From positions 33,772 to 97,771 of the forward strand of contig JAYUQG010000019.1 of assembly GCA_043756865.1 (NCBI GenBank): a stretch of 64,000 bases of DNA, in the 5' to 3' direction. Positions 2,830 to 59,873 of the stretch are shown here, piece by piece. The translations under genes and the position numbers were made by a program. The number at the start of each line of letters is the position of its first letter. The stretch's first letter is position 1. The notes beneath the pieces are model-generated. The model searched no databases. It saw only the letters and a program-made list of their open reading frames with translations, and had not been told where the DNA came from. The DNA comes from a bacterium (GTDB lineage: Bacteria > Patescibacteriota > Minisyncoccia > Phycocordibacterales > UBA6899).

Positions 2830-4338
2830 ATGAAATTAATATCTAAATCAAAGTTTCTTCAATATCTCGAGTGTCCAAAGGATACATGGTTTCTGCTGCA
2901 TATGCCGAACCTTCCGGAATTCGAGGTATCGACTTCTGAGCAAGGCATAATGGATCAGGGGAATGTCGTTGAAGAGTATGCAAAGAAGCTCAAAATATTT
3001 GCTGGGTATATTGAGGTCGAGAAACGGGGAAGAGAAGCAGATGAGGAAATTAGAAAACTTCTATCTCAAAAGGTTCCAGCCATATATCAACCCACCTTTG
3101 TTGCTGATGGATTTGTCATTCGTTGTGACTTCCTTGTGTGGAACAACAATGAAAGGAAGTGGGACCTGTATGAGGTGAAGGGCACTAATTCAAAAAAGGA
3201 TGAAGGGGGTCCACGGGACCACATCTCTGATATCGCATTTCAGGCAATCGTACTTGATCGCGCCGGTGTTTCCATTGGTAATAAATACATCGTCCATCTT
3301 AATAATGAGTATATTCGTGGCGACGAGTTGGATGTCGAACAGCTTTTTATTGTGAGCGACAGTACTGCTCAGGTAAAAGAAATGCTTGATGTTACTTCAG
3401 CACAAATGGAAAAGGCTAAAGAGTATCTCAATCAAGAAAATGAGCCGAAGGATGGTTGTGATTGTCATTTTAATGGTCGCAGTAGGCACTGCGACACGTT
3501 TGAGCGTTCACACCCCGAGATACCTGAATATTCCATACACGATATCTCGCGCATTGGGCTAAAGCCAGACAAGTTGATTCAGCTCATCACCGATGGAATT
3601 TATCATCTCGAGGATATCGACGACACATCAGATTTTAGTGTTATTCAGCAGAACCAAATTCATACCCACAAGACGAAGAAGGAAATTATTGATGTAAACG
3701 AGATTGCCAAGATTCTTGATGGTTATAAATATCCACTATACTTTTTTGATTACGAAACATTTGCGCCAGCGGTACCGATATACCCAGGATATGGAACATA
3801 TCGTCGTATCCCGATACAGTTCTCTTTGCACATCATAGACGAAAGGGGTGGTGCACTCCGTCACGTTGATTATGTACATACTGAAAACTCGGATCCATCT
3901 ATTTCAGTAGCCAAAATACTAGCTGATACGATTGATCCGAATGGCACTGTTCTTGCGTGGAATGTGGGGTTTGAAAAAGGTGTTACAAAAGAGCTTTCTG
4001 AACGCTTGCCGGAGTACAAAATTATACTCGATAGAATTTGTGATCAAATGCAGGATTTGCGTGATGTTTTTTCGAAACAACACTATGTGCATAAAGACTT
4101 TTGTGGGAGTTCAGGGGTGGGGGCTGTTATGGAGGCATTGTTGCCACATATGACATATGACCATCTGCCATATACGGGAAACGATGTTGGTTTCGTCTGG
4201 TGGAAGGATATTGTGAACGACGGAGCAAGTCCTGCTGATCGTGAAAAGAAGACGCACCTCATCCGTGAATACTGCAAACAAGATACTTTTGTAATGGTCG
4301 AAATCTTCCGTATCTTGAGTGATATTGCCAGAAATTAA
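2830..4338 (+). CDS. DUF2779-type nuclease-family protein (N-terminal PD-(D/E)xK / Cas4-RecB-like fold)
   Basis: N-terminus ISKSKFLQYLECPKDTWF resembles the DUF2779 family. A ..D..YEVKGT.. E-x-K motif is present, as is FFDYETFAPAVPIY. 502 aa. Confidence 0.6.
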   Translation: MKLISKSKFLQYLECPKDTWFLLHMPNLPEFEVSTSEQGIMDQGNVVEEYAKKLKIFAGYIEVEKRGREADEEIRKLLSQKVPAIYQPTFVADGFVIRCDFLVWNNNERKWDLYEVKGTNSKKDEGGPRDHISDIAFQAIVLDRAGVSIGNKYIVHLNNEYIRGDELDVEQLFIVSDSTAQVKEMLDVTSAQMEKAKEYLNQENEPKDGCDCHFNGRSRHCDTFERSHPEIPEYSIHDISRIGLKPDKLIQLITDGIYHLEDIDDTSDFSVIQQNQIHTHKTKKEIIDVNEIAKILDGYKYPLYFFDYETFAPAVPIYPGYGTYRRIPIQFSLHIIDERGGALRHVDYVHTENSDPSISVAKILADTIDPNGTVLAWNVGFEKGVTKELSERLPEYKIILDRICDQMQDLRDVFSKQHYVHKDFCGSSGVGAVMEALLPHMTYDHLPYTGNDVGFVWWKDIVNDGASPADREKKTHLIREYCKQDTFVMVEIFRILSDIARN

Positions 4339-4454
4339 TTTTGCTTTACGCCGATTAGTAATGGTTGTAGGGTAATGATTGCCGAGGGTGCATACGGGAG
4401 ATTGTCATGCATCGATCCCACTTGGCATAAAATGCAAAATATCAAAATAAATAT

Positions 4455-5666
4455 ATGAATGAAATTATTTGCCCAAATTGTAAAAAAGCTTTCAAGGTTG
4501 ACGAGACCGGATTTGCCGATATTTTAAAGCAAGTCCACGATCATGAGTTTGAAAAAGAACTAAATTCACGTGAGGAAATGCTAAAAAAAGATAAAGAAAA
4601 TGCAGTTAAACTCGCCGAGGCAAATATTACGAACTCACTGCAGAAAGACATTGCAAAGAAGGATGCTGAACTAGCCGAAATAAAATCCAAAATTAATAAC
4701 GCAGAGCTTGAGAAAAAACTTGCAGTCACTGAAGCGGTCAATAAAATTGAAAAAGAGCGCGATGAACTAGCTGGCGAGCTGAAAAGTAAAGATGCTGAGA
4801 AACAACTACTCGAGACATCACTAAAAGATAAATATACTACTGAGCTCAAGACCAAGGACGATATCATCAAGATGAAAGATGAGGAAATTGCTCTTCGTAA
4901 AGATATGAAGGTCAAGCTTTCAACAAAAATGATCGGTGAAACACTTGAACAACACTGCGAAACCGAGTTTAACAAACTTCGCGCAACTGGATTTCAGAAT
5001 TCGTATTTCGAAAAAGACAACGACGCAAAAACTGGCAGTAAGGGTGATTATATCTATCGCGAAACCGATGATGCTGGTAATGAAATCATTTCTATTATGT
5101 TTGAAATGAAAAACGAAGGCGATGAAACAGCTACCAAGAAAAAGAACGAAGACTTTTTACGCGAACTTGATAAGGATCGCGCCGAAAAAAAGTGTGAGTA
5201 TGCCGTTCTAGTTACACTTTTGGAATCTGAAAATGAGCTTTATAACACCGGCATTGTTGATGTTTCTCATAAATACCAAAAAATGTATGTAGTTCGACCA
5301 CAATTTTTCATTCCCATGATAACTCTACTACGCAACGCATCCATGAACTCGCTTAAGTATAAAGCCGAGCTTGCGGTGGTAAGGAATCAGAACATCGATA
5401 TCACCAACTTCGAGGAAAATATGAACAAGTTTAAAGATGGCTTTAAAAAAAATTATGAGCTTGCTTCAAGCCGATTTAAAATAGCAATCGATGAAATCGA
5501 CAAAACCATTGACCATCTTCAGAAAACCAAAGATGCGCTCCTGTCCTCTGAAAATAACCTTCGTCTAGCGAACAATAAAGCAGAATATCTGACAATCAAA
5601 AAACTGACGCATGCCAATCCTACAATGACTAAAATGTTCGCAGATATTACTGATGCAAGTGAATGA
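4455..5666 (+). CDS. DUF2130 family protein (N-terminal CxxC zinc ribbon, long coiled coil, globular C-terminus)
   Basis: [32 protein letters not shown] is a typical DUF2130 N-terminus. A K/E-rich heptad region follows. C-terminal segment [22 protein letters not shown] has a possible D...ExK motif. Confidence 0.65.
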
Positions 5667-51966: not shown

Positions 51967-52299
51967 ATGGCACTTGTCGAAATCGACCATGTTCTGGGCA
52001 CGCTCGAAAAAGAGTTCAGTGTCTGTCTGACGCTCAAGCAGCGACAGGAAGCGCGAGGCATTTACGGTGTCATGGTGCGACTTGCACTCATACACACGCT
52101 CAAGTCAGAAACTCTGCGCATGATTTTCAGCAAGCTGAAAGACCTGCCCGAGGGTTACGCACATGCCGAGCAAATCATGTTGTTTGCGACACCCGATGAG
52201 TGCAAACACATACAAGTTGCGCAAGCCGTATCCCAAGCGATAGGCAGGGCAGCGCGAACGTCGCAAAGCAATGGCAACTTCCCCCCGCTCTTTTCGTGA
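51967..52299 (+). CDS. hypothetical protein (110 aa)
   Basis: ATG ORF. No motif recognised. Confidence 0.35.
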   Translation: MALVEIDHVLGTLEKEFSVCLTLKQRQEARGIYGVMVRLALIHTLKSETLRMIFSKLKDLPEGYAHAEQIMLFATPDECKHIQVAQAVSQAIGRAARTSQSNGNFPPLFS

Positions 52300-52349
52300 G
52301 TACAACCGTCAACTTGGCGGTTTTTTTGTATCTCCACTACAATATAGGA

Positions 52350-53864
52350 ATGGCTAATCTCAGGCAGACTCTCTATGCGTGGCGAGACAATGAGGCGGCG
52401 ACACGGGGTGTCGAGCTTTTTCGCATACTCCCGAATACTGCCCTCGAAGAGATTGTACGCAGTGTCCCCAAGACGAGAGAAGAGTTAATGGCCATCAAGG
52501 GCATTAAGGATGCGAAGTTCGCTCAGTTTGGGCAAGTCATTCTTGGACTTGTGGCGAATCACACCGCAACTGCACTACATGGAGATGTCGCACCGAAAAC
52601 TGATGATGTGCCACCCGCGCAAAAAGAAGAAAAGAAGGCATTTTCGGTTAGTGCATATCTCGACATCATCAACAGGGAGTTGTGGAGACTGCGCGCACGC
52701 GTGCAGGGTGAAGTCACGAGTTTTAAGTTTCAAGGTAGCGCAGTGTACCTCGCACTGAAAGATGCAGCGGACGACAGCACCCTCAATGTATTCATGTGGA
52801 CGCGTGACCAAGTGCTCTCCGGCATTGAGCTCCGCGAAGGACTCGAAATTGTTATTGAAGGAAGATCAGAAATCTACAAACCCTCAGGGAGATTCAGTTT
52901 TCGTGCTGAGACAATGGAGCTCGTAGGCGAGGGTGCGCTAAAAAAAGCATACGACACGCTGAAGAAAAAGCTGGAAAGCGAAGGACTCTTTGATGTTGCG
53001 CGCAAGCGCGCGCTACCAGAATTTCCGGAGCGTATCGGCCTCATCACCTCGCGCACAGGTGCGGTTATACATGATTTTTCGACAAACCTTGGGAGATTTG
53101 GCTACACGATTTCATTTGTAGACTCGCGCGTTGAGGGCACACTCGCAGTGAAAGACATTCTCAAAGCAATTGAACTGGTACAAACAAAACACATAGACGT
53201 ATTGGTGCTCATACGCGGAGGGGGAAGTTTGGAGAGCTTACAGGCCTTCAACAACGAAGCAGTGGTCCGCGCACTTATCGCTGTGCCTGTTCCAGTGATT
53301 TGTGCTATTGGTCATGACAAGGACGTACCACTCGCACAACTCGTGGCAGATTTTGCACCATCGACACCCACTGCAGCCACTACATTACTTAATAAATCGT
53401 GGGAGGATGCGCGTCATGAAATGCGTCTACACGAGCGAGAAATAGTCTCTCGTTATGAACGTGTGCTCTGGTCAAACACCGATGTTATCGCAAGCACTGT
53501 GGCACACATAGAAACATTCTTTGGGCGAATCATAAAGCCAATAAAAGCGTTAACGCAAGATTTCGAAGGACACACACGTACACTCGAGTCTTGGTTTGCA
53601 ACCACTCAAAGAGAACTCCAAAATACAAAAAAGGAAATGTTGCGCCTTTCTGAGCGCGGACACAGCGTACAGAGTGCACTACTTGAGGCATGTACTAAAT
53701 CTCTCGCAATGCACGACCCCATGCGCCAGCTAAAACTGGGCTATAGCATTCTCCTTAGGCAGGGAAAAGTCCTGCGTTCGGTAAAACAACTCGCCCCGGG
53801 GGACAATTTTGATGCACAGCTTTCCGATGGTACACTGTCCGCAACACTCAACCACAAGGAGTAA
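52350..53864 (+). CDS. xseA: exodeoxyribonuclease VII large subunit with N-terminal HRDC-like domain
   Basis: OB-fold plus catalytic core (ITSRTGAVIHDF, LIRGGGSLESL, AIGHDKD). N-terminal about 65 aa resemble an HRDC helix bundle (ELFRILPNTALEEIVRSVPKTREELMAIKGI). ATG at 52350 with AGGA upstream. Confidence 0.8.
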   Translation: MANLRQTLYAWRDNEAATRGVELFRILPNTALEEIVRSVPKTREELMAIKGIKDAKFAQFGQVILGLVANHTATALHGDVAPKTDDVPPAQKEEKKAFSVSAYLDIINRELWRLRARVQGEVTSFKFQGSAVYLALKDAADDSTLNVFMWTRDQVLSGIELREGLEIVIEGRSEIYKPSGRFSFRAETMELVGEGALKKAYDTLKKKLESEGLFDVARKRALPEFPERIGLITSRTGAVIHDFSTNLGRFGYTISFVDSRVEGTLAVKDILKAIELVQTKHIDVLVLIRGGGSLESLQAFNNEAVVRALIAVPVPVICAIGHDKDVPLAQLVADFAPSTPTAATTLLNKSWEDARHEMRLHEREIVSRYERVLWSNTDVIASTVAHIETFFGRIIKPIKALTQDFEGHTRTLESWFATTQRELQNTKKEMLRLSERGHSVQSALLEACTKSLAMHDPMRQLKLGYSILLRQGKVLRSVKQLAPGDNFDAQLSDGTLSATLNHKE

Positions 53865-53883
53865 TATCCACCACCTAAACACC

Positions 53884-54093
53884 ATGACAAAGTCACAAAC
53901 AAATCTCACTGACGCAATGAAAAAGCTGCGGGGGATTATCGAATGGTTTGAATCGCAAGACGAAATAGATGTCGAAAAGGGACTGGAAAAAGTGAAGGAA
54001 GGGGCAGTACTCCTAAAGCTTTCAAAAGTCCGACTAAAGGAACTTGAAAATGAATTTGAAGATATCAAAAAAACGCTTGCCGATAATGACTAG
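53884..54093 (+). CDS. xseB: exodeoxyribonuclease VII small subunit
   Basis: 69-aa helical protein (LRGIIEWFESQD...LEKVKEGAVLLKLSKVRLKELENE) directly after xseA. Confidence 0.7.
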   Translation: MTKSQTNLTDAMKKLRGIIEWFESQDEIDVEKGLEKVKEGAVLLKLSKVRLKELENEFEDIKKTLADND

Positions 54094-55837
54094 GGGTTAC
54101 TGGGGTGAAAGGTTGGCGCGCACGTTCATTGTGTTCGCGCTCGTACTGTTTCCACACTTCGCAATTGCGGACAGCGAAATCATCAGCGCGTTTACGACAC
54201 ATTTTGAAATTAATGTGAATGGAAGCGTTAATGTTCAGGAAGAAATCGTATATGATTTCGGTCCAAACGCCGTAAACAAGCATGGTATTTACCGCGAAAT
54301 CCCCCTACAGTTTTCGATACCGGGTGAGCGTACGGCGCGGCAGATTGAGATTTCGAGCATTATGGTTACTGACGGAAGGGGTAATCTGAGACCATCCCAA
54401 TACACTGGAGGCGGAAATTATGTCTCACTCAAAATAGGTGACCCTGATGTCACGGTCACCGGACCCCAGCTCTACGTTATTCGTTATACCGTATGGGGTG
54501 CATTGATTTCGTTACCTGATAAAGACGAATTTTATTGGAATACCACTGGAGAAAAGTGGGCTGAGCCCATACTACGCGCAAGAGCTGAAGTAGTGTTGCC
54601 CGTACCCGCACAAACCGAACTTATATCGCACGTCTGTTATGCGGGGCCACCACAAAGTGACCTACGCTGCACAAGCACGACGACACCCGATACGATTGCC
54701 ACAGAGTCGCGCATGGTGGTCTTTGAGGAAAACGCGGGCCTCGCTCCCCATTTTGGAATGACAATTGCGGTAGGGGTACCAAAAGGCATATTCAATGTCC
54801 CTGCCGCAAAATTTACCCCCGAACCGGACACCAGCACATTTTGGGGGAAGTTGCGCACTATTTCGTTTGTATCCACATTACTGATTCCCATTGCCACCTT
54901 TGTTGCGATGTGGAGAATTTGGTCAAAACGCGGACGTGACCCAAAAGGCAGAGGAGTAGTAATTGTCGCATATGATATTCCCAAACACTTAGGAGTGCTC
55001 GAACTTGCATACCTGAGCAAGAACACCCTCGAACACAATGCACTTTCCGCCGCGCTTGTAGACCTCGCGATTCGCGGATATCTAACTATCGAGCGCATCG
55101 TCACAAAAAAACTTTTCATTGACACCGAAGACTTCCGGATTACATTCCTGAAAGAGGTAGGTACAAGCAAGTTAAGTATTGCGGAGAAAATTCTCTATAA
55201 CGAGTTTCGTGACCATGGGGACACACTGCTGCTCTCATCGCTGTCACACAAGCTCACGGGGTTAAGCGCTATACTCGGAACACAGGTTGCGGAAGACCTC
55301 ACACAAAAGGGGTACTACACGGAGAATCCTATCAAGGTGGGGCAGAATTATTTTATTGCTGCGGTAGGATTATTCTTTTTTGGAATGTTTATTCCACTGC
55401 TCAACATTGCTATCGTTATGAGTGCAATCATTATTTTTGTGTTTGCCCTATTGATGCCTAAACGCACTGAGGACGGTGTGCTGCTGGTGGAGGAGATTGC
55501 GGGATTCAAGGAATATCTTTCTGTTGCAGAGAAAGACCGAATTGACTTTGTGAATGCACCAGATAAAGACCCGAAGAGTTTTGAGCGTTTTTTGCCATAC
55601 GCAATGGTGTTTAAGGTGGAAAAAGCATGGGCCTCCAAGTTCAAGGATATTTATACCAACAAAGACTCTGCACATTGGTACAGCGGATCAGGTGCCTTTA
55701 ATGCCGCGACACTTGTTGCAGGTATGGACGCGTTTGATACGAGCACTGCTTCTGCTTTTTCGTTAGAAGGTGGCGGTTCTAGTGGAGGCGGCTCCGCGGG
55801 AGGAGGTGGTGGGGGCGGCGGAGGAGGAAGTTGGTAG
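54086..55837 (+). CDS. DUF2207-like membrane protein with Gly-rich C-terminal tail
   Basis: Signal peptide. Large extracellular domain. 3 TM segments. Tail GGGSSGGGSAGGGGGGGGGGSW. ORF-track start 54044 is TTG; ATG at 54086 overlaps the xseB stop. Confidence 0.6.
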   Translation: MTRGYWGERLARTFIVFALVLFPHFAIADSEIISAFTTHFEINVNGSVNVQEEIVYDFGPNAVNKHGIYREIPLQFSIPGERTARQIEISSIMVTDGRGNLRPSQYTGGGNYVSLKIGDPDVTVTGPQLYVIRYTVWGALISLPDKDEFYWNTTGEKWAEPILRARAEVVLPVPAQTELISHVCYAGPPQSDLRCTSTTTPDTIATESRMVVFEENAGLAPHFGMTIAVGVPKGIFNVPAAKFTPEPDTSTFWGKLRTISFVSTLLIPIATFVAMWRIWSKRGRDPKGRGVVIVAYDIPKHLGVLELAYLSKNTLEHNALSAALVDLAIRGYLTIERIVTKKLFIDTEDFRITFLKEVGTSKLSIAEKILYNEFRDHGDTLLLSSLSHKLTGLSAILGTQVAEDLTQKGYYTENPIKVGQNYFIAAVGLFFFGMFIPLLNIAIVMSAIIIFVFALLMPKRTEDGVLLVEEIAGFKEYLSVAEKDRIDFVNAPDKDPKSFERFLPYAMVFKVEKAWASKFKDIYTNKDSAHWYSGSGAFNAATLVAGMDAFDTSTASAFSLEGGGSSGGGSAGGGGGGGGGGSW

Positions 55838-55876
55838 CAATTTAATTTAACATTTTAGTACAATAACAACACACAT

Positions 55877-56080
55877 ATGGATACAGAGATACTAAAAAAA
55901 CTGGAGAATCTTGAGGCAAAAATTGATGCAATTTATGTTTCCACAGAACAGACGCGGAAATATTTCTTTTGGACTATGGTACTCACCGTAGTGGTGTTTG
56001 TCGTTCCACTTATTGGTCTTATGTTTGTGATTCCGACATTTATTTCAAGCTATACCGCAGGGATGGAGGGGTTGATGTAG
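55877..56080 (+). CDS. small membrane protein (67 aa)
   Basis: Coiled N-terminus plus one TM (FFWTMVLTVVVFVVPLIGLMFVI). Confidence 0.4.
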   Translation: MDTEILKKLENLEAKIDAIYVSTEQTRKYFFWTMVLTVVVFVVPLIGLMFVIPTFISSYTAGMEGLM

Positions 56081-56102
56081 GGTGGGCTGATGTTTAAACA
56101 AA

Positions 56103-56122
56103 CTCCCCGCATAAGCGGGGGA
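56103..56122 (+). terminator. perfect 8-bp hairpin (CTCCCCGC-ataa-GCGGGGAG) after the small membrane gene
   Basis: Read directly. There is no strong U-tract, so terminator function is uncertain. Confidence 0.35.
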
Positions 56123-56131
56123 GTAGTGTAT

Positions 56132-56416
56132 TCATTCAACGCACGCGAGGTGGTGAACCTTGGCGCGATGTACTTCGATGACTTTTCGGATTGCGTCCTT
56201 GAGATTGCGCGATTCTGTCCCACATGGATCGCTTACATGCTTGCAACGCTTGATTTCTGTTTCGAAAAAACCTTGAGGAAAACGATGTTCTTCGAGCATC
56301 ACCATGAAGTTTCCACCACTGTTGTTGACGCGGCACACATAAGTATCACCCTCGTACATGGCACTTACGCTTACGATGCGTAATGCCTCATCGGGATTGT
56401 ATTCGCCAATTTTCAC
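56132..56416 (-). CDS. hypothetical protein (94 aa), possible last gene of SulP operon
   Basis: GTG start. Preferred over the overlapping + ORF 56090-56383, which would have to encode through the perfect hairpin. Confidence 0.3.
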   Translation of the reverse strand: MKIGEYNPDEALRIVSVSAMYEGDTYVCRVNNSGGNFMVMLEEHRFPQGFFETEIKRCKHVSDPCGTESRNLKDAIRKVIEVHRAKVHHLACVE

Positions 56417-56519
56417 TTGTCACCCCATGCTTAGTCTTTATGTATTCTAAAACAGAGAATTATCCTCTGACATCTGTCACCCCAAAGAATTGTGTGTTCT
56501 TACGAAGAGTGCAATATGC

Positions 56520-56936
56520 CTAGACCTCATCAACAGTCCAAACTTTTGGATTTTCTGTCTCGTGCGCCCAAAGTCCCACGACCGTGACCACAAGCTCGGG
56601 ATCAATTTCTTGAATCAGTTTTTTTGTCGTTTCCACATCACTTGAAATGCACACACAATGTGCGTCATGGTCGATGGGGTTTCCCGCGCAATCATCGTGT
56701 CCTACGACAGAGACCGTACGAGAGCCGTGGTTTATTATTGAAATTTCAAGCTTACGCTTTAGCCATGCGCGCTGTTCAGGGGTCATATTGAGCTCAAATG
56801 CATCCATTCCTGGTTCGGTAATGGAGTCGATAAAATCGAGGCCATATTTCGCTTTCATCCACGTCACTGTAGCATCGAGCGAGCGCCCGTCCATGCAGTT
56901 AATCGTCGTTCCGAATGTTAAATTTGCATGTGCCAT
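56520..56936 (-). CDS. small beta-carbonic-anhydrase-like zinc-binding protein (tentative)
   Basis: CMDGR ... VVGHDDCAGN mirrors the beta-CA CxDxR / HxxC(G) zinc-ligand motifs with similar spacing. Only 138 aa. Directly downstream of SulP. Confidence 0.4.
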   Translation of the reverse strand: MAHANLTFGTTINCMDGRSLDATVTWMKAKYGLDFIDSITEPGMDAFELNMTPEQRAWLKRKLEISIINHGSRTVSVVGHDDCAGNPIDHDAHCVCISSDVETTKKLIQEIDPELVVTVVGLWAHETENPKVWTVDEV

Positions 56937-57093
56937 GATGAAGTGATTAGCGAGTGATGGGAAAGAGTATACTCCTAGTCCGACAAAAGCAAAAGACCAG
57001 CATTGCGAGTGCTAACTACTGGGGTATGAAAAACCTCGCCCGTGGGCGAGGTGCGATTGGAAAGTACAAACTGTCAGTGCGATGAAGCGCTAA

Positions 57094-58791
57094 TCAGTCG
57101 GCTGACATCAGCCTTTTTGACGAGTGGCGAACGAGTGCCGCCTTTTCGTGTCTCGAGAGTTTTTTCAAACCTCCATCACCGTCGAAACACTTGAGGCAGA
57201 TTCGGTTCTTGCCGAGCCGTTCAATGGTGTTGAGCGACGGGTGGTCGACCATGGTTACCTCGTCCCCACAATGCAGGACGATTGCCTTTACGTCACTAGG
57301 CGCATAGATGTAGTGCGCATTCAGGAACACAACCGGACCAGAAAGATGGATGTGGTAGTTTCCATCAATCATCTTGGAACTTGCAACCGGATTTCTGAAG
57401 AGGCTCCGGAAAACAAAGAACGGCGATGCGTTCGGCTGATGCGTCTTATGTGCCGCCCACAGTGCAATCGCATACACGATCATGAATTCCATGGCCATGG
57501 CGGCTGCCATCCCCCAAAGAATTTCACGGCTATACGCAGCAACACCAACACCGGTTGCAAAGACGGCAAACTGGCCGAGGCCAATATGCGCAAAGTGCAA
57601 CCAAACGCGCGGAGCGCACATCGCGCCTGCCGTAATGGCGATAACCGCAGAAAGTCCGGAGAGCGGAAGGTGGTTAATTACCTCACGTGTAGTTGCAAAG
57701 TAGACAGAGATGAAGATGAACAGGCCGCAGAACGCACCCGACCACAGTGTCTTCGCACCGAGGCTGATATTGAGGGAACTCTTGAGTCCGCCCCAGATGT
57801 GCGTCAGCGCTCCAAAGAAGGAGCCGATGAAGTTTGCGGTGCCCATCGCCTTGAGCGTCAGATTGGGATCCGACGTGCGCTTGTAGTGATCCTTCGCATC
57901 GATACCTTTTGCTGTCGCTGTTGACTCAATCGCATCTACCAAAGTCAGAATCACGACTGCCCACAAAAAGTCCTTCCAGATACTTGGGTCCATCCAGACG
58001 CCAGCAAAGTTTGGAATAACCACTCCTGATGCAAATGGGTCTGCGGGCAAGTGAATGCGGAACTCTGGAGGAAGTAGGAACCAGTAGGAGAGGCCGAGCG
58101 CGAACACCGCCGCTAAGACCTGCGCAGGTATGTAGCGCAAGAATGGCAGTCTCTTGCGCAAGAGGAGAAGCGTCGCCAAGAAAACAAGCGTCGATGCTCC
58201 AATAACAAACACACTCTGGTTTATTTGCGGAATACGCGCAGGAATTTCCGTAAGAATTCCCCACACATCTTGCGACTGAAACTTCACCCCAAAGAACACG
58301 GGGATTTGTTTGACTAGAAGCGAAATGCCGATCCATGCAAACATGCTTTCTACTACCGCATCCGAAAACAACGCGGCGAATCGTGCGAGCTTGAGTTTGC
58401 CAATGATAAACATCAGCACACCCGTGCACATTACGACCGGAAGAAAGAGTGAGTACCCGAGCACTTGGTCACCGTGCCCCAGCTTGTCGATGGTATCGGC
58501 AATAATCGGAGCGAGCGCAGCGGCCGCTCCAGCCACACCAAGGTACGAGCCGCCCATAAACGGGAACAGCACGCACGCAATGATTGCCGAGATGATGCCG
58601 CTCATGGGCGGTGCATGCGAAATCGACGATATCGCGAGGGCAAATATGAGTGCCACGGGGAAAAGCGCAAACCCCGCCGGTAGGTCATAGCGAAGGAATC
58701 GCAGACCTTGTAGTCCATTTTGTGGTACTACATCGGGTGCGGGGTTAAAAAACTCTCGCAACCGATTCCAGACACTTTGGATGTTTGTCAT
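57094..58791 (-). CDS. SulP/SLC26 family anion transporter with C-terminal STAS-like domain
   Basis: DLPAGFALFPVALIFALAISSISHAPPMSGIISAII and ANFIGSFFGAL..GLKSSLNISLGAKT match the SulP signature regions. Confidence 0.75.
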   Translation of the reverse strand: MTNIQSVWNRLREFFNPAPDVVPQNGLQGLRFLRYDLPAGFALFPVALIFALAISSISHAPPMSGIISAIIACVLFPFMGGSYLGVAGAAAALAPIIADTIDKLGHGDQVLGYSLFLPVVMCTGVLMFIIGKLKLARFAALFSDAVVESMFAWIGISLLVKQIPVFFGVKFQSQDVWGILTEIPARIPQINQSVFVIGASTLVFLATLLLLRKRLPFLRYIPAQVLAAVFALGLSYWFLLPPEFRIHLPADPFASGVVIPNFAGVWMDPSIWKDFLWAVVILTLVDAIESTATAKGIDAKDHYKRTSDPNLTLKAMGTANFIGSFFGALTHIWGGLKSSLNISLGAKTLWSGAFCGLFIFISVYFATTREVINHLPLSGLSAVIAITAGAMCAPRVWLHFAHIGLGQFAVFATGVGVAAYSREILWGMAAAMAMEFMIVYAIALWAAHKTHQPNASPFFVFRSLFRNPVASSKMIDGNYHIHLSGPVVFLNAHYIYAPSDVKAIVLHCGDEVTMVDHPSLNTIERLGKNRICLKCFDGDGGLKKLSRHEKAALVRHSSKRLMSAD

Positions 58792-59129
58792 TTTTACTCC
58801 GTTCTATTCAGTTTTCAAGGTACGATTTGTCGAACACAGCAAGCACACCATAGGCCACATATGTCCGGAGGAGAAATCTAGGGTGGATTGAAGTCTTCAA
58901 GATGAAACTTCAATGCACGATACATCACTCCTCTGGGCACGCGAAGCCAAATATTTTCCTATTAAGGAAGAGGTCATTATTATCTTTTTTAAGATACAGT
59001 CAAGCTGATTTATGCACTTTATTATTCTATCATAATATTTAGTAAATGTCAATAATTTACCGCCAAGGGTAAGTTATTCTTCAAATACACTTTCATTTCC
59101 TTAACAAACGTGTTACGTTAGAGCCACTT

Positions 59130-59873
59130 ATGGAAGGAATCCACGTCTCTATTGCAGCCGAGAAACTCACCGTATGGATGGGTGTGCCTATCACAAATAC
59201 GCTCTTGATGAGCTGGATTGTTGTGGCTGTGATAATCACGCTTTCGCTTTTGCTCAACCGTAAACTCGCGGTTATCCCTGGGGCGTTCCAGTCTGTCGTT
59301 GAGGTGCTTGCATTCGAGCTCACCAAGTTTGTCGAAGAAACGCTTGAAAACAAAGAATTAGCACGCCGCTTTACGCCACTCCTATTGGCGATTTTCGTCT
59401 TTATACTCATCGGTAACTGGCTTGAGTTCATTCCGGGGGTTGAAAGTATCCGCTACATCCACGACGGACACTCGGTGCCGCTTCTGCGTTCCATGAATAC
59501 CGACCTCAATATGACCCTCGCGCTCGCCATTATCGCATTTGTAACTATCGAAGTTACCGGAATTGTTGTTATTGGTTTCTGGAAGTACGCGGGAAAATTC
59601 ATCAACTTTAGCTCCTTTATCGGTTTCTTTGTTGGTATCCTCGAACTCCTTTCTGAAGTCATCAGACTCATTTCCTTTTCCTTCCGTCTTTTCGGAAATG
59701 TCTTCGCAGGAAGTGTACTCGTCATGATTATCACTTTTCTGGTACCATACATCATTCCTGTGCCTTTCATTTTATTTGAAGTGTTCGTGGGCTTGATCCA
59801 AGCAGCAGTGTTCATGTTGTTGACACTGTTCTTCATCAAGCTCGCGATCATGAATACTCACGAAGCGCACTAG
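59130..59873 (+). CDS. atpB: F0F1 ATP synthase subunit a
   Basis: SFSFRLFGNVFAG (conserved Arg of subunit a). 5-6 TM segments. Confidence 0.85.
   Translation: MEGIHVSIAAEKLTVWMGVPITNTLLMSWIVVAVIITLSLLLNRKLAVIPGAFQSVVEVLAFELTKFVEETLENKELARRFTPLLLAIFVFILIGNWLEFIPGVESIRYIHDGHSVPLLRSMNTDLNMTLALAIIAFVTIEVTGIVVIGFWKYAGKFINFSSFIGFFVGILELLSEVIRLISFSFRLFGNVFAGSVLVMIITFLVPYIIPVPFILFEVFVGLIQAAVFMLLTLFFIKLAIMNTHEAH

Follow-up and report, generated by a model that had tools for sequence, protein, structure and literature searches.

The window, the 64,000-nt stretch of bacterial DNA analysed here, carries on its minus strand the genes for a SulP-family permease, a short beta-class carbonic anhydrase (CA) and a lineage-specific protein, together with several candidate regulatory elements (Table 1). 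All three open reading frames lie exactly where the first-pass annotation of this DNA had placed them.

Table 1. Features of the SulP-CA locus, in the order in which the minus strand is read (positions are those of the window)
Feature	Position	Strand	Basis
Sigma-70-like promoter match, TTGACA-17-TAGAAT, 11/12	59052-59024	-	consensus match only
Sigma-70-like promoter match, TTGACT-16-AATAAT, 10/12	59003-58976	-	consensus match only
Conserved leader of ~90 nt, putative SulP 5' UTR, ending 63 nt before the ATG	58855..58944	-	alignment, folds, covariance model
SulP/SLC26-family anion permease, 565 aa	57094..58791	-	PF00916, E 6.9e-46
Terminator-like GC-rich hairpin and T-run between SulP stop and CA gene	57033..57052	-	8-bp stem with 6 GC pairs, then TTTTT
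TATACT (-10-like) box, 29 nt upstream of the CA start codon	56966..56971	-	read from sequence
Beta-carbonic anhydrase, F-clade (Caut-bCA-like, Pfam PF20393 Pro_CA_2), 138 aa	56520..56936	-	Pfam, fold, conservation
Lineage-specific 94-aa protein, GTG start after GGGGTG	56132..56416	-	same-strand homologs
Terminator-like hairpin CCCCGC-TTAT-GCGGGG with T-rich tail, after the 94-aa gene	56105..56120	-	sequence
Convergent 67-aa membrane-protein gene facing the 56105..56120 hairpin	55877-56080	+	

Candidate transcription signals and the downstream gene

The hairpin between the SulP and CA genes recurs in the closest relative (L095), where a compensatory change has turned a C-G pair into U-A, and a hairpin with a T-run stands at the same place in all seven clade members, the stem sequences differing from one to the next. 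The TATACT box is found in 7/7 clade spacers, and the sequence block around it is unchanged in L095; a search for a matching -35 element gave no good candidate, and we regard the box as a candidate CA promoter. The intergenic gaps measure 114-190 nt and the two genes never overlap. An Rfam scan of positions 55800-59300 gave nothing convincing, its sole match being a sub-threshold PsrR1 over the terminator hairpin. A single operon would have neither terminator nor promoter between its genes, and elements resembling both occur here; the SulP and CA genes appear to be conserved neighbours in separate transcription units, and read-through from SulP into CA may occur.

Upstream of SulP, tandem promoter matches (58976..59052) precede the leader, and both hexamer pairs are kept in L095, L003 and L007. 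The outer stem of the leader pairs a Shine-Dalgarno (SD)-like 5' strand (GAGGAG) with an anti-SD-like 3' strand (CUCCUC); its internal loops are conserved and its apical hairpin is variable, and minimum-free-energy folds from 7 species reach the same architecture. A covariance model (R1) scores nine distinct leader instances at 52-93 bits, and no Rfam family matches the element. A pattern scan of metagenomes returned 74 loci, only three of which (two distinct sequences) are real by the covariance model, and 73 other loci yielded no further instance. The leader precedes either SulP or, in other genomes, an uncharacterised protein family that we call X. A conserved upstream ORF within the leader was considered and rejected, the 15-codon ORF of the window being truncated or absent in other species.

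The public gene call passed over the 94-aa ORF and chose an antisense 97-aa ORF (56090-56383). In L004 the gene next after the CA gene encodes a same-strand homolog of the 94-aa protein, L007 has two copies in that place, and P0029 is a further homolog; the proteins share the invariant residues H44, C58, H60, P64, C65 and H83, and in the homologs the opposite strand is interrupted by stops. Neither Pfam nor NCBIfam contains a match. L095, L003, L005 and L008 lack the gene. It is a real gene, and an accessory one that forms no obligatory part of the SulP-CA pair.

A short beta-carbonic anhydrase

The C-x-D-x-R and H-x-x-C motifs to which the first-pass annotation had drawn attention are present in the 138-aa protein as NCMDGR (C14, D16, R18) and GHDDCAGN (H80, C83), with C14, H80 and C83 as predicted zinc ligands and D16-R18 as the dyad. 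Among 150 family representatives, gathered without motif patterns, C14 (145/145), D16 (149/149), H80 and C83 (150/150 each) are invariant, and R18 is kept in 145 of 149; judged from these sequences, the motif residues are no chance resemblance. Substitutions relative to the closest relative fall 8/5/63 by codon position, which indicates purifying selection on the gene. The protein covers profile positions 4-120 of the 125 in PF20393 with 114.3 bits (cut-off 30), and the same family is matched by all 28 close homologs and by 86/86 representatives. RefSeq already labels family members 'carbonic anhydrase'. Longer members result from one tandem duplication or from one-off fusions (methyltransferase, GIY-YIG, TIR, MerE) that have no common theme.

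The AF2 model (pLDDT 89.7) has the alpha/beta fold of beta-CAs in the expected topology, in which beta1 has the Cys at its C-terminal end and beta3 terminates at His-x-x-Cys, and its top Foldseek matches are beta-CAs, e.g. Cab (1g5c). Profile-profile alignment (hhalign) places H80 and C83 on H98 and C101 of E. coli Can (E 2.4e-4 in one comparison). The kinship is visible only through the fold, the Pfam cross-match and such profile-profile comparison: PDB chains searched with the protein (phmmer) and with its profile (HMM) yielded no beta-CA match, and PF00484 reaches only E 0.07 with the window protein itself. These two results would suit a coincidental occurrence of CxDxR and HxxC in an unrelated small protein, to which we assign a negligible probability, as it is contradicted by the fold searches, the invariant motif residues, the in-register profile alignments and the PF00484 cross-matches of 42/86 representatives (best E 8.9e-06).

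The F clade of beta-CAs was described by Pander et al. 2019 (PMC6690855) around its founding member Caut-bCA (CLAU_3021) of Clostridium autoethanogenum, a dimeric 124-aa enzyme with a kcat/KM of 3.1e7 M-1s-1 that complements E. coli can and is impaired by a His tag at its N-terminus. Its members measure 124-142 aa, have a CxDxR-HxxC spacing of ~64 aa as compared with ~55 aa in clades A-D, and are frequent in uncultivated bacteria and archaea (PMC6690855). The window protein agrees in length and in spacing, 61 residues separating R18 from H80, and the primer-derived termini of Caut-bCA (NSDFAVLLNCM, INENFEVEKL) agree with the family consensus and with member P0076; the primer-derived DNA was not found in viral or metagenome collections. 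By these traits and termini, rather than by the full sequence of Caut-bCA, the PF20393 family fits the F clade. Text matches in the literature for PF20393, Pro_CA_2 and IPR046871 were solely unrelated 'ProcA2' lanthipeptide papers.

The claimed shortfall of about 60 aa relative to known beta-CAs does not exist, since characterised F-clade enzymes span this very length. The suggestion of a new variant likewise gives way: the 'minimal CA' subclass has been on record since 2019, includes one active, kinetically characterised type member, is curated in Pfam and is named in RefSeq. The observation stands, but most of it is ordinary: the 138-aa protein joins a described subclass in which one member is proven biochemically.

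A QxP motif C-terminal to CxDxR is found in 'most' F-clade members and is entirely absent from clade D beta-CAs (PMC6690855). The window clade is without it: the window protein reads R18-S-L-D-A as against the family consensus R-x-Q-x-P, and position 20, which is Q in 70/81 family sequences, is L or V in the window clade. QxP being typical rather than strictly defining, this is a departure from a typical trait and not from a strict definition. The loss, the additional invariant residues D37, S66 and H70 (role not assigned) and the caution of Pander et al. that an M. thermoacetica-like subclade is possibly poorly active (PMC6690855) would fit a protein that kept the beta-CA fold and zinc site and is no CO2 hydratase, acting on COS or CS2 (as COSase and CS2 hydrolase do) or persisting as a low-activity or regulatory derivative. 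We consider this improbable: clade D does without QxP altogether, D37, S66 and H70 occur throughout the family and thus presumably in its active members too, a length of 138 aa fits the short Caut-bCA-like subclade, and the vicinity holds no sulfur-metabolism genes. Catalytic activity as a CA is, on this evidence, a confident prediction for the 138-aa protein.

The SulP permease and its neighbourhood

The Sulfate_transp match (PF00916) spans residues 33-393 of the permease, the transmembrane core of SulP, and PDB matches to SLC26/SulP structures cover the membrane domain alone. It had been annotated as a SulP/STAS transporter, and the first half of that name holds; for the second, STAS (PF01740) gave no Pfam match even at E 10 in the window protein, its isolated tail or four orthologs. 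The ~105-aa C-terminal tail is conserved in the clade and STAS-like by eye, and its AF2 model is poor (pLDDT 54.8). The permease scores far under the BicA, DauA and TIGR00815 cut-offs. Because it reaches 85 bits against the 880-bit BicA equivalog cut-off (NCBIfam NF050096), its substrate is only putative, and we lean slightly towards bicarbonate. A 768-aa relative of fusion-like size (P0187) was considered as a SulP-CA fusion and rejected, as it has no recognisable CA domain.

In seven genomes (the window, L095, L003, L004, L005, L007 and L008) the CA gene comes next after SulP and shares its strand. Of the linkage proposed in the first-pass annotation, the adjacency is thereby borne out; the operon that it implied is weakened, the arrangement being confined to one small clade, with a hairpin and a -10-like box between the genes and the 94-aa gene missing from the closest relative. 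This clade is Lloydbacteria-like and comprises the window, L095 and 5/7 of the nearest species representatives. SulP lies near the CA gene in 0/73 other family loci, and when the neighbours at 76 family loci were clustered, no partner emerged as conserved beyond lineage-level synteny. The next relatives, L006 and L009, retain the frame atp...CA...DUF2207/xse without SulP, so the adjacency could be inherited synteny. The CA would then be a stand-alone housekeeping enzyme of the F clade and SulP a passenger in an inherited block (atp operon - SulP - CA - DUF2207 - xseBA), functionally uncoupled from it and perhaps carrying sulfate or another anion. The signals between the genes in 7/7 species, the gaps without overlap and the failure of SulP as a BicA equivalog all suit such an arrangement, as does the precedent of Caut-bCA, whose gene lies in a phage-like cluster of uninformative context (PMC6690855).

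Against this stands the company kept by related permeases. Beyond the clade, the top-scoring relatives of SulP are ~515 aa long and have no STAS, and four of the eight outgroup SulPs examined (P0192, P0193, P0194 and P0196, on unrelated contigs) immediately adjoin a same-strand, Can-like classical beta-CA (PF00484), which supports a bicarbonate/CA partnership; one further member of the eight adjoins PurE. CA-linked SulPs without STAS are moreover a recognised clade, the Rv3273 type, which is reported never to occur without a beta-CA adjoining or fused to it (PMC6458275) and to which can2-sulP clusters and SulP-beta-CA fusions belong (Felce & Saier 2004; Acidithiobacillus ferrooxidans, PMC6458275). 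The window SulP is itself juxtaposed to a beta-CA gene, a likeness in gene context. Finally, the SulP slot beside the F-clade CA in L006 and L009 is not empty: it is occupied by X (CxD...HxPCG), which hints at a functional tie between slot and CA gene. We judge the uncoupled arrangement rather unlikely, and functional coupling of SulP and CA to be narrowly the better reading.

The proteins of family X measure ~185-235 aa and carry C-x-D ... H-x-P-C, followed in most members by G-A-A. Comparison of X with Pro_CA_2 by hhalign was not significant (E 0.046, probability 1%). X may be a very divergent zinc protein of the beta-CA fold.

Proposed inorganic-carbon handling and comparison with known systems

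We hypothesize that the 138-aa protein is a cytoplasmic, short F-clade (PF20393) beta-class CA, probably dimeric by analogy with Caut-bCA, in which Cys14, His80 and Cys83 would hold Zn2+ and the Asp16-Arg18 dyad would orient a zinc-bound water or hydroxide for attack on CO2, in the reversible reaction CO2 + H2O <-> HCO3- + H+. The neighbouring SulP would most likely carry bicarbonate across the membrane, and the two proteins together would manage the inorganic carbon of a Lloydbacteria-type Parcubacteria cell, supplying HCO3- for biosynthetic carboxylations or balancing pH and CO2. SulP would form a unit with its own promoters, structured leader and terminator, the CA gene would use its own -10-like box, and the 94-aa gene would be optional. 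Taken as a whole, this explanation of a short CA and a bicarbonate permease in separate transcription units is one that we hold to be reasonably probable. Synteny, fold, membership of the family and conservation of the ligands are shown; catalysis by this particular protein, bicarbonate as the substrate of SulP and a coupling of the two are predicted.

Its modest novelty is one of context: a single Parcubacteria lineage has an F-clade CA beside SulP where, elsewhere, a Can-type CA flanks a STAS-less permease. That context lends independent genomic support to the ideas that F-clade proteins act as CAs in vivo and that such a SulP carries bicarbonate, and it suggests that CPR bacteria with reduced genomes invest in inorganic-carbon handling. 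The leader and the CxD...HxPCG family, both found incidentally, are the parts of most interest. As a speculation that we think more likely wrong than right, the leader could be an undescribed cis-regulatory RNA of Parcubacteria, an SD/anti-SD-type switch for inorganic-carbon genes; were this true, the locus would be a small carbon-handling module under regulation, its parts interchangeable and the short CA alone constant.

Among known enzymes the closest comparison is with Caut-bCA and the F clade. The window protein shares with them a very short chain with only ~10-13 residues ahead of the first zinc Cys, an N-terminus of the form F-x-x-x-[IL]-N-C-M-D-G-R, H-x-x-C ~61-64 residues further on, and every zinc ligand along with the Asp-Arg dyad; such proteins are widespread in uncultivated bacteria and archaea. 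Unlike most F-clade members, the window clade has S-L-D-A in place of x-Q-x-P after CxDxR, and it shares only ~30-45% identity with other family representatives. Whereas Caut-bCA is encoded in a phage-like cluster and its activity was measured, the window gene adjoins a SulP permease and the activity of its product is predicted. The clade D 'minimal' beta-CAs Cab (Methanothermobacter thermautotrophicus, PDB 1g5c) and Rv1284 (1ylk) are longer, at ~163-170 aa; in the window protein, by contrast, the first beta-strand begins after only 7 residues, and clades A-D space CxDxR and HxxC by ~55 aa, clade F by ~64 aa.

The permease resembles BicA, the cyanobacterial SulP-type Na+/HCO3- symporter, in its SLC26/SulP core (the BicA model aligns with residues 30-389; PDB 6ki1, E 8.4e-08) and differs from it in having no Pfam-detected STAS and in belonging to a non-photosynthetic CPR host. 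As in the can2-sulP or Rv3273 type, a SulP without recognisable STAS lies directly beside a same-strand beta-class CA, and four of the nearest outgroup SulPs have exactly such a neighbour, a Can-like CA. In contrast to that type, with its Can-type partner of ~210-250 aa, the window SulP has an F-clade CA beside it, a terminator-like hairpin separates genes that neither overlap nor fuse, and the SulP retains its conserved ~105-aa C-terminal tail.

Gene content and synteny of the locus

The three minus-strand open reading frames that the first-pass annotation had listed were recovered with exactly matching coordinates and lengths, and the 565-aa product is, as it had proposed, a SulP/SLC26 permease. 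The host is a Parcubacteria-group bacterium, and a GFS-labelled set of 'Candidatus Lloydbacteria' MAGs supplies the nearest genomic relatives of its 138-aa carbonic anhydrase (CA); an identical copy of the CA lies on a 187-kb NCBI contig. The order atp operon (divergent) - SulP - CA - ... - DUF2207 - xseB - xseA is syntenic across the SulP-bearing clade, which comprises the window, its closest relative L095, and the Lloydbacteria-like loci L003, L004, L005, L007, and L008. Loci L006 and L009 share the same frame without SulP.

Coordinates of features at the locus and in related loci (positions without a locus handle are those of the window)
Feature	Position	Strand	Basis or context
XseA (exonuclease VII large subunit)	52200-53864	+	Flanking gene
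DUF2207 membrane protein	54044-55837	+	Flanking gene
67-aa single-TM protein	55877-56080	+	Flanking gene
Terminator-like hairpin after 94-aa gene	56105-56120	-	Sequence reading
94-aa ORF, GTG start	56132-56416	-	ORF reading
CA, 138 aa	56520-56936	-	N-C14-M-D16-G-R18 and G-H80-D-D-C83-A-G-N
TATACT box after hairpin, 29 nt before CA ATG	56966-56971	-	Conserved in all 7 clade genomes
Terminator-like hairpin and T-run, SulP-CA gap	57033-57052	-	Conserved in 7/7 clade genomes, compensatory change
SulP/SLC26 permease, 565 aa	57094-58791	-	PF00916, E 6.9e-46, residues 33-393
Leader element, ~90 nt	58855-58944	-	Conserved in all seven SulP-bearing genomes
Promoter-like site, conserved	59003-58976	-	338-nt SulP-atpB region
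Promoter-like site, conserved	59052-59024	-	338-nt SulP-atpB region
F-type ATP synthase operon (atpB, atpE, atpF, atpH, atpA ...)	59130 onward	+	Flanking genes
Leader instances, SulP genomes	L095 1999-2080, L003 186-276, L004 2797-2874, L005 62-139, L007 2931-3024, L008 2732-2799
Leader instances, X loci	L113 789-881, L132 7671-7757
X family members	L113 946-1605, L132 7815-8510, L006 ~1018-1572, L009 2981-3682, L032 4087-4680	+, +, +, +, -

The 94-aa frame that follows the CA, previously noted as an unknown, is a real gene, as judged from homolog conservation, a GGGGTG Shine-Dalgarno-like site upstream, and the terminator-like hairpin; a public gene call (Logan contig) instead took an antisense 97-aa ORF at 56090-56383 (+). 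In L004 and in L007, which carries two tandem copies, homologs come immediately after the CA gene in its orientation; stops break their antisense frames, and there is one database relative (P0029). The gene is nevertheless accessory, since it is absent from L095 as well as from L003, L005, and L008; in L095, 21 nt separate the CA stop from a convergent 70-aa gene. No Pfam or NCBIfam family matches the product, whose invariant residues (H44, C58, H60, P64-C65, and H83) are compatible with, and suggest, a small metal-binding protein.

A conserved leader and the X proteins

Besides two conserved promoter-like sites, the 338 nt that separate SulP from the divergent atpB include a leader that is kept in 7/7 SulP-bearing genomes despite SulP identities of only 38-84%. 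Single-sequence MFE folding leads to a shared architecture across all the species: the outer stem, with an SD-like 5' strand (GAGGAG / GAAGGA) and an anti-SD-like 3' strand (CUCCUC / UCCUUC), encloses both conserved internal loops (GUAYCGYG ... CCCUARA) and an apical hairpin whose sequence and length vary. A covariance model scores 52-93 bits in nine distinct instances versus 41-44 bits on the antisense strand, and 88% of pair cells are canonical versus 30-55% after sliding of the 3' partner. The element has no Rfam match and is a candidate new cis-regulatory RNA, with modest covariation (3 pairs change on both sides, and 15/500 shuffles reach the observed score).

A metagenome pattern scan for the leader returned only two new distinct instances, at L113 (= L128) and at L132, the latter in the matching slot next to the atp operon. 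Both precede an uncharacterised protein of ~220-230 aa with C-x-D-G ... H-x-P-C-G-A-A, not SulP. In L006 and L009, members of this X family (~185-235 aa; invariant C-x-D ... H-x-P-C), for which neither Pfam nor the PDB gave a match, stand upstream of the CA gene in the slot otherwise taken by SulP; in L032 an X homolog lies next to the CA gene in convergent orientation. An alignment of X with Pro_CA_2 by hhalign (E 0.046 over 112 columns, not significant) pairs C-S-D-G with C-M-D-G-R and H-x-P-C-G with H-x-D-C-A-G, and a relationship between the two can be offered as a lead. The leader and the X family could both repay further work.

A short beta-carbonic anhydrase, probably of the F clade

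The CA matches Pfam PF20393 ('Pro_CA_2, putative carbonic anhydrase') at 114.3 bits against a cut-off of 30, and the classical PF00484 at E 0.07 only; all 28 close homologs also match PF20393. When 1.84 billion cluster representatives were searched exhaustively with an HMM, 933 clusters passed E <= 1e-3 and 529 passed E <= 1e-10; most are stand-alone proteins of 120-140 aa. Among 86 representatives, PF20393 is present in all and PF00484 reaches E <= 0.1 in 42 (best 8.9e-06). Within the top 150, taken without motif-based selection, the motif residues are conserved (C14 145/145, D16 149/149, R18 145/149, H80 150/150, and C83 150/150); D37 likewise never varies, and S66 and H70 hardly do. Compared with the closest relative (protein 92% identical), the gene carries 8/5/63 substitutions by codon position.

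In a confident AlphaFold2 model built from 25 homologs (pLDDT 89.7, pTM 0.85), strand 1 ends with C14 and strand 3 with H80-x-x-C83, and the model's top Foldseek matches in the PDB are beta-CAs (Cab 1g5c, E 4.4e-05). Profile-profile alignment of the family with E. coli Can and a five-member Can-type alignment sets H80/C83 on Can H98/C101 (E 2.4e-4). The PF20393 score, ligand conservation, fold, and profile alignments thus bear out the beta-CA-like structure and predicted zinc site read from the motifs in the first-pass annotation.

Among the long family members (including P0030, 266 aa, P0036, and P0040), some carry the short CA domain twice in tandem within a single chain, an arrangement similar to that in Porphyridium, whose beta-CA has two repeats (1ddz), and others are isolated fusions to methyltransferase, GIY-YIG, TIR, or MerE-like segments.

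The earlier description of the protein as a new variant, ~60 aa shorter than known beta-CAs, is out of date, because F-clade lengths have been published and RefSeq already names members 'carbonic anhydrase' in Clostridium, Guptibacillus, Thermosulfurimonas, and Methanobacterium. Pander et al. (2019) characterised Caut-bCA of Clostridium autoethanogenum as a dimeric enzyme of 124 aa and 14.2 kDa (kcat 2.1e5 s-1, kcat/KM 3.1e7 M-1s-1) that complements an E. coli can mutant; its subclade spans 124-142 aa, has a CxDxR-HxxC spacing of ~64 aa versus ~55 aa in clades A-D, and draws its orthologs 'relatively often' from uncultivated bacteria and archaea (PMC6690855). Most members carry a QxP motif C-terminal of CxDxR, which is wholly missing from clades D and E (PMC6690855), and our family consensus reads F-x-T-A-I-N-C-M-D-G-R-x-Q-x-P. 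By termini alone, the Caut-bCA cloning primers (M-N-S-D-F-A-V-L-L-N-C-M... and ...I-N-E-N-F-E-V-E-K-L; PMC6690855) match this consensus and P0076 (N-F-A-T-L-L-N-C-M-D-G-R... and ...W-I-N-Q-N-F-E-V-E-K-V). We read the window CA as an F-clade beta-CA of already known type in a Parcubacteria genome, resembling that clade in its 138 aa and the 61 residues between R18 and H80, whereas its own clade differs from most F-clade members in having S-L-D-A where x-Q-x-P is expected.

Linkage of the carbonic anhydrase to SulP

Among 80 CA-family loci (one genome per species), SulP is the next gene upstream, in the same orientation, only in L003, L004, L005, L007, and L008, where the CA is 50-83% identical. 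No SulP was found at the other 75 (L006, L009, and 73 others), which span Clostridium, Bacillus-type Firmicutes, Methanobacteria, Nitrosopumilales, Zixibacteria, Chloroflexota, and more, and comparison of neighbours found none conserved family-wide. A further membrane-transport neighbour of an F-clade CA occurs in L009, where a fragment-like ORF of 122 aa (4181-4546, +; Ion_trans PF00520, E 1.1e-06) comes after the CA gene.

Within the clade, SulP and CA look like two apparently insulated transcription units, with read-through possible, since gaps of 114-190 nt show translational coupling in none of the genomes and contain a TATACT box after a GC-rich hairpin and T-run (7/7 genomes). The stem sequences differ, and those of the window and L095 are set apart by a compensatory change of C-G to U-A.

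Pfam detected no STAS domain in the window SulP, its isolated tail, or four orthologs, and PDB matches cover the membrane domain only. The clade shares a conserved tail of ~105 aa (L-F-R-N-P ... H-x-x-L-x-G-P-x-V-x-x-N ... V-x-x-V-D), for which the AF2 model is of low reliability (pLDDT 54.8). Because the permease scores far below the BicA, DauA, and TIGR00815 cut-offs, its substrate can only be inferred.

The analysis shows family, fold, ligand conservation, and synteny, and we infer CA activity, SulP substrate, and coupling as follows. C14, H80, and C83 would bind Zn2+ while D16-R18 position the catalytic water, and the enzyme, probably a dimer like Caut-bCA, would equilibrate CO2 and HCO3- in the cytoplasm, with HCO3- as the putative substrate moved across the membrane by SulP. 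E. coli without Can does not grow at atmospheric CO2 (PMC6690855), and most bacteria depend on CO2 and bicarbonate for essential carboxylation reactions (PMC8552792); it is plausible that a Parcubacteria cell with its reduced genome has the same requirement.

Outside the clade, the best-scoring SulP relatives (25-32% identity, ~515 aa) lack STAS and are often CA-linked. A Can-like classical beta-CA is next downstream on the same strand of P0193, P0194, and P0196, and precedes the SulP on the same strand in P0192 (Kushneria); none was seen beside P0187, P0188, and P0195. The STAS-less P0190 is followed by PurE (AIRC family; L091 2888-3415), a different inorganic-carbon-related neighbour; purine-ring carboxylation depends on CO2/bicarbonate.

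This pattern agrees with the published statement that Rv3273-type SulPs lack STAS and without exception adjoin a beta-CA or are fused to one (PMC6458275). At the window locus, the CA sits next to SulP in a layout already familiar from Can-type CAs. Since the outgroup SulPs are often CA-linked, in line with the Rv3273-type rule, we lean slightly towards a functional bicarbonate-transporter/CA pair at the window locus, one in which, in contrast to the Can-type pairs, an F-clade CA would replace the usual partner of SulP.
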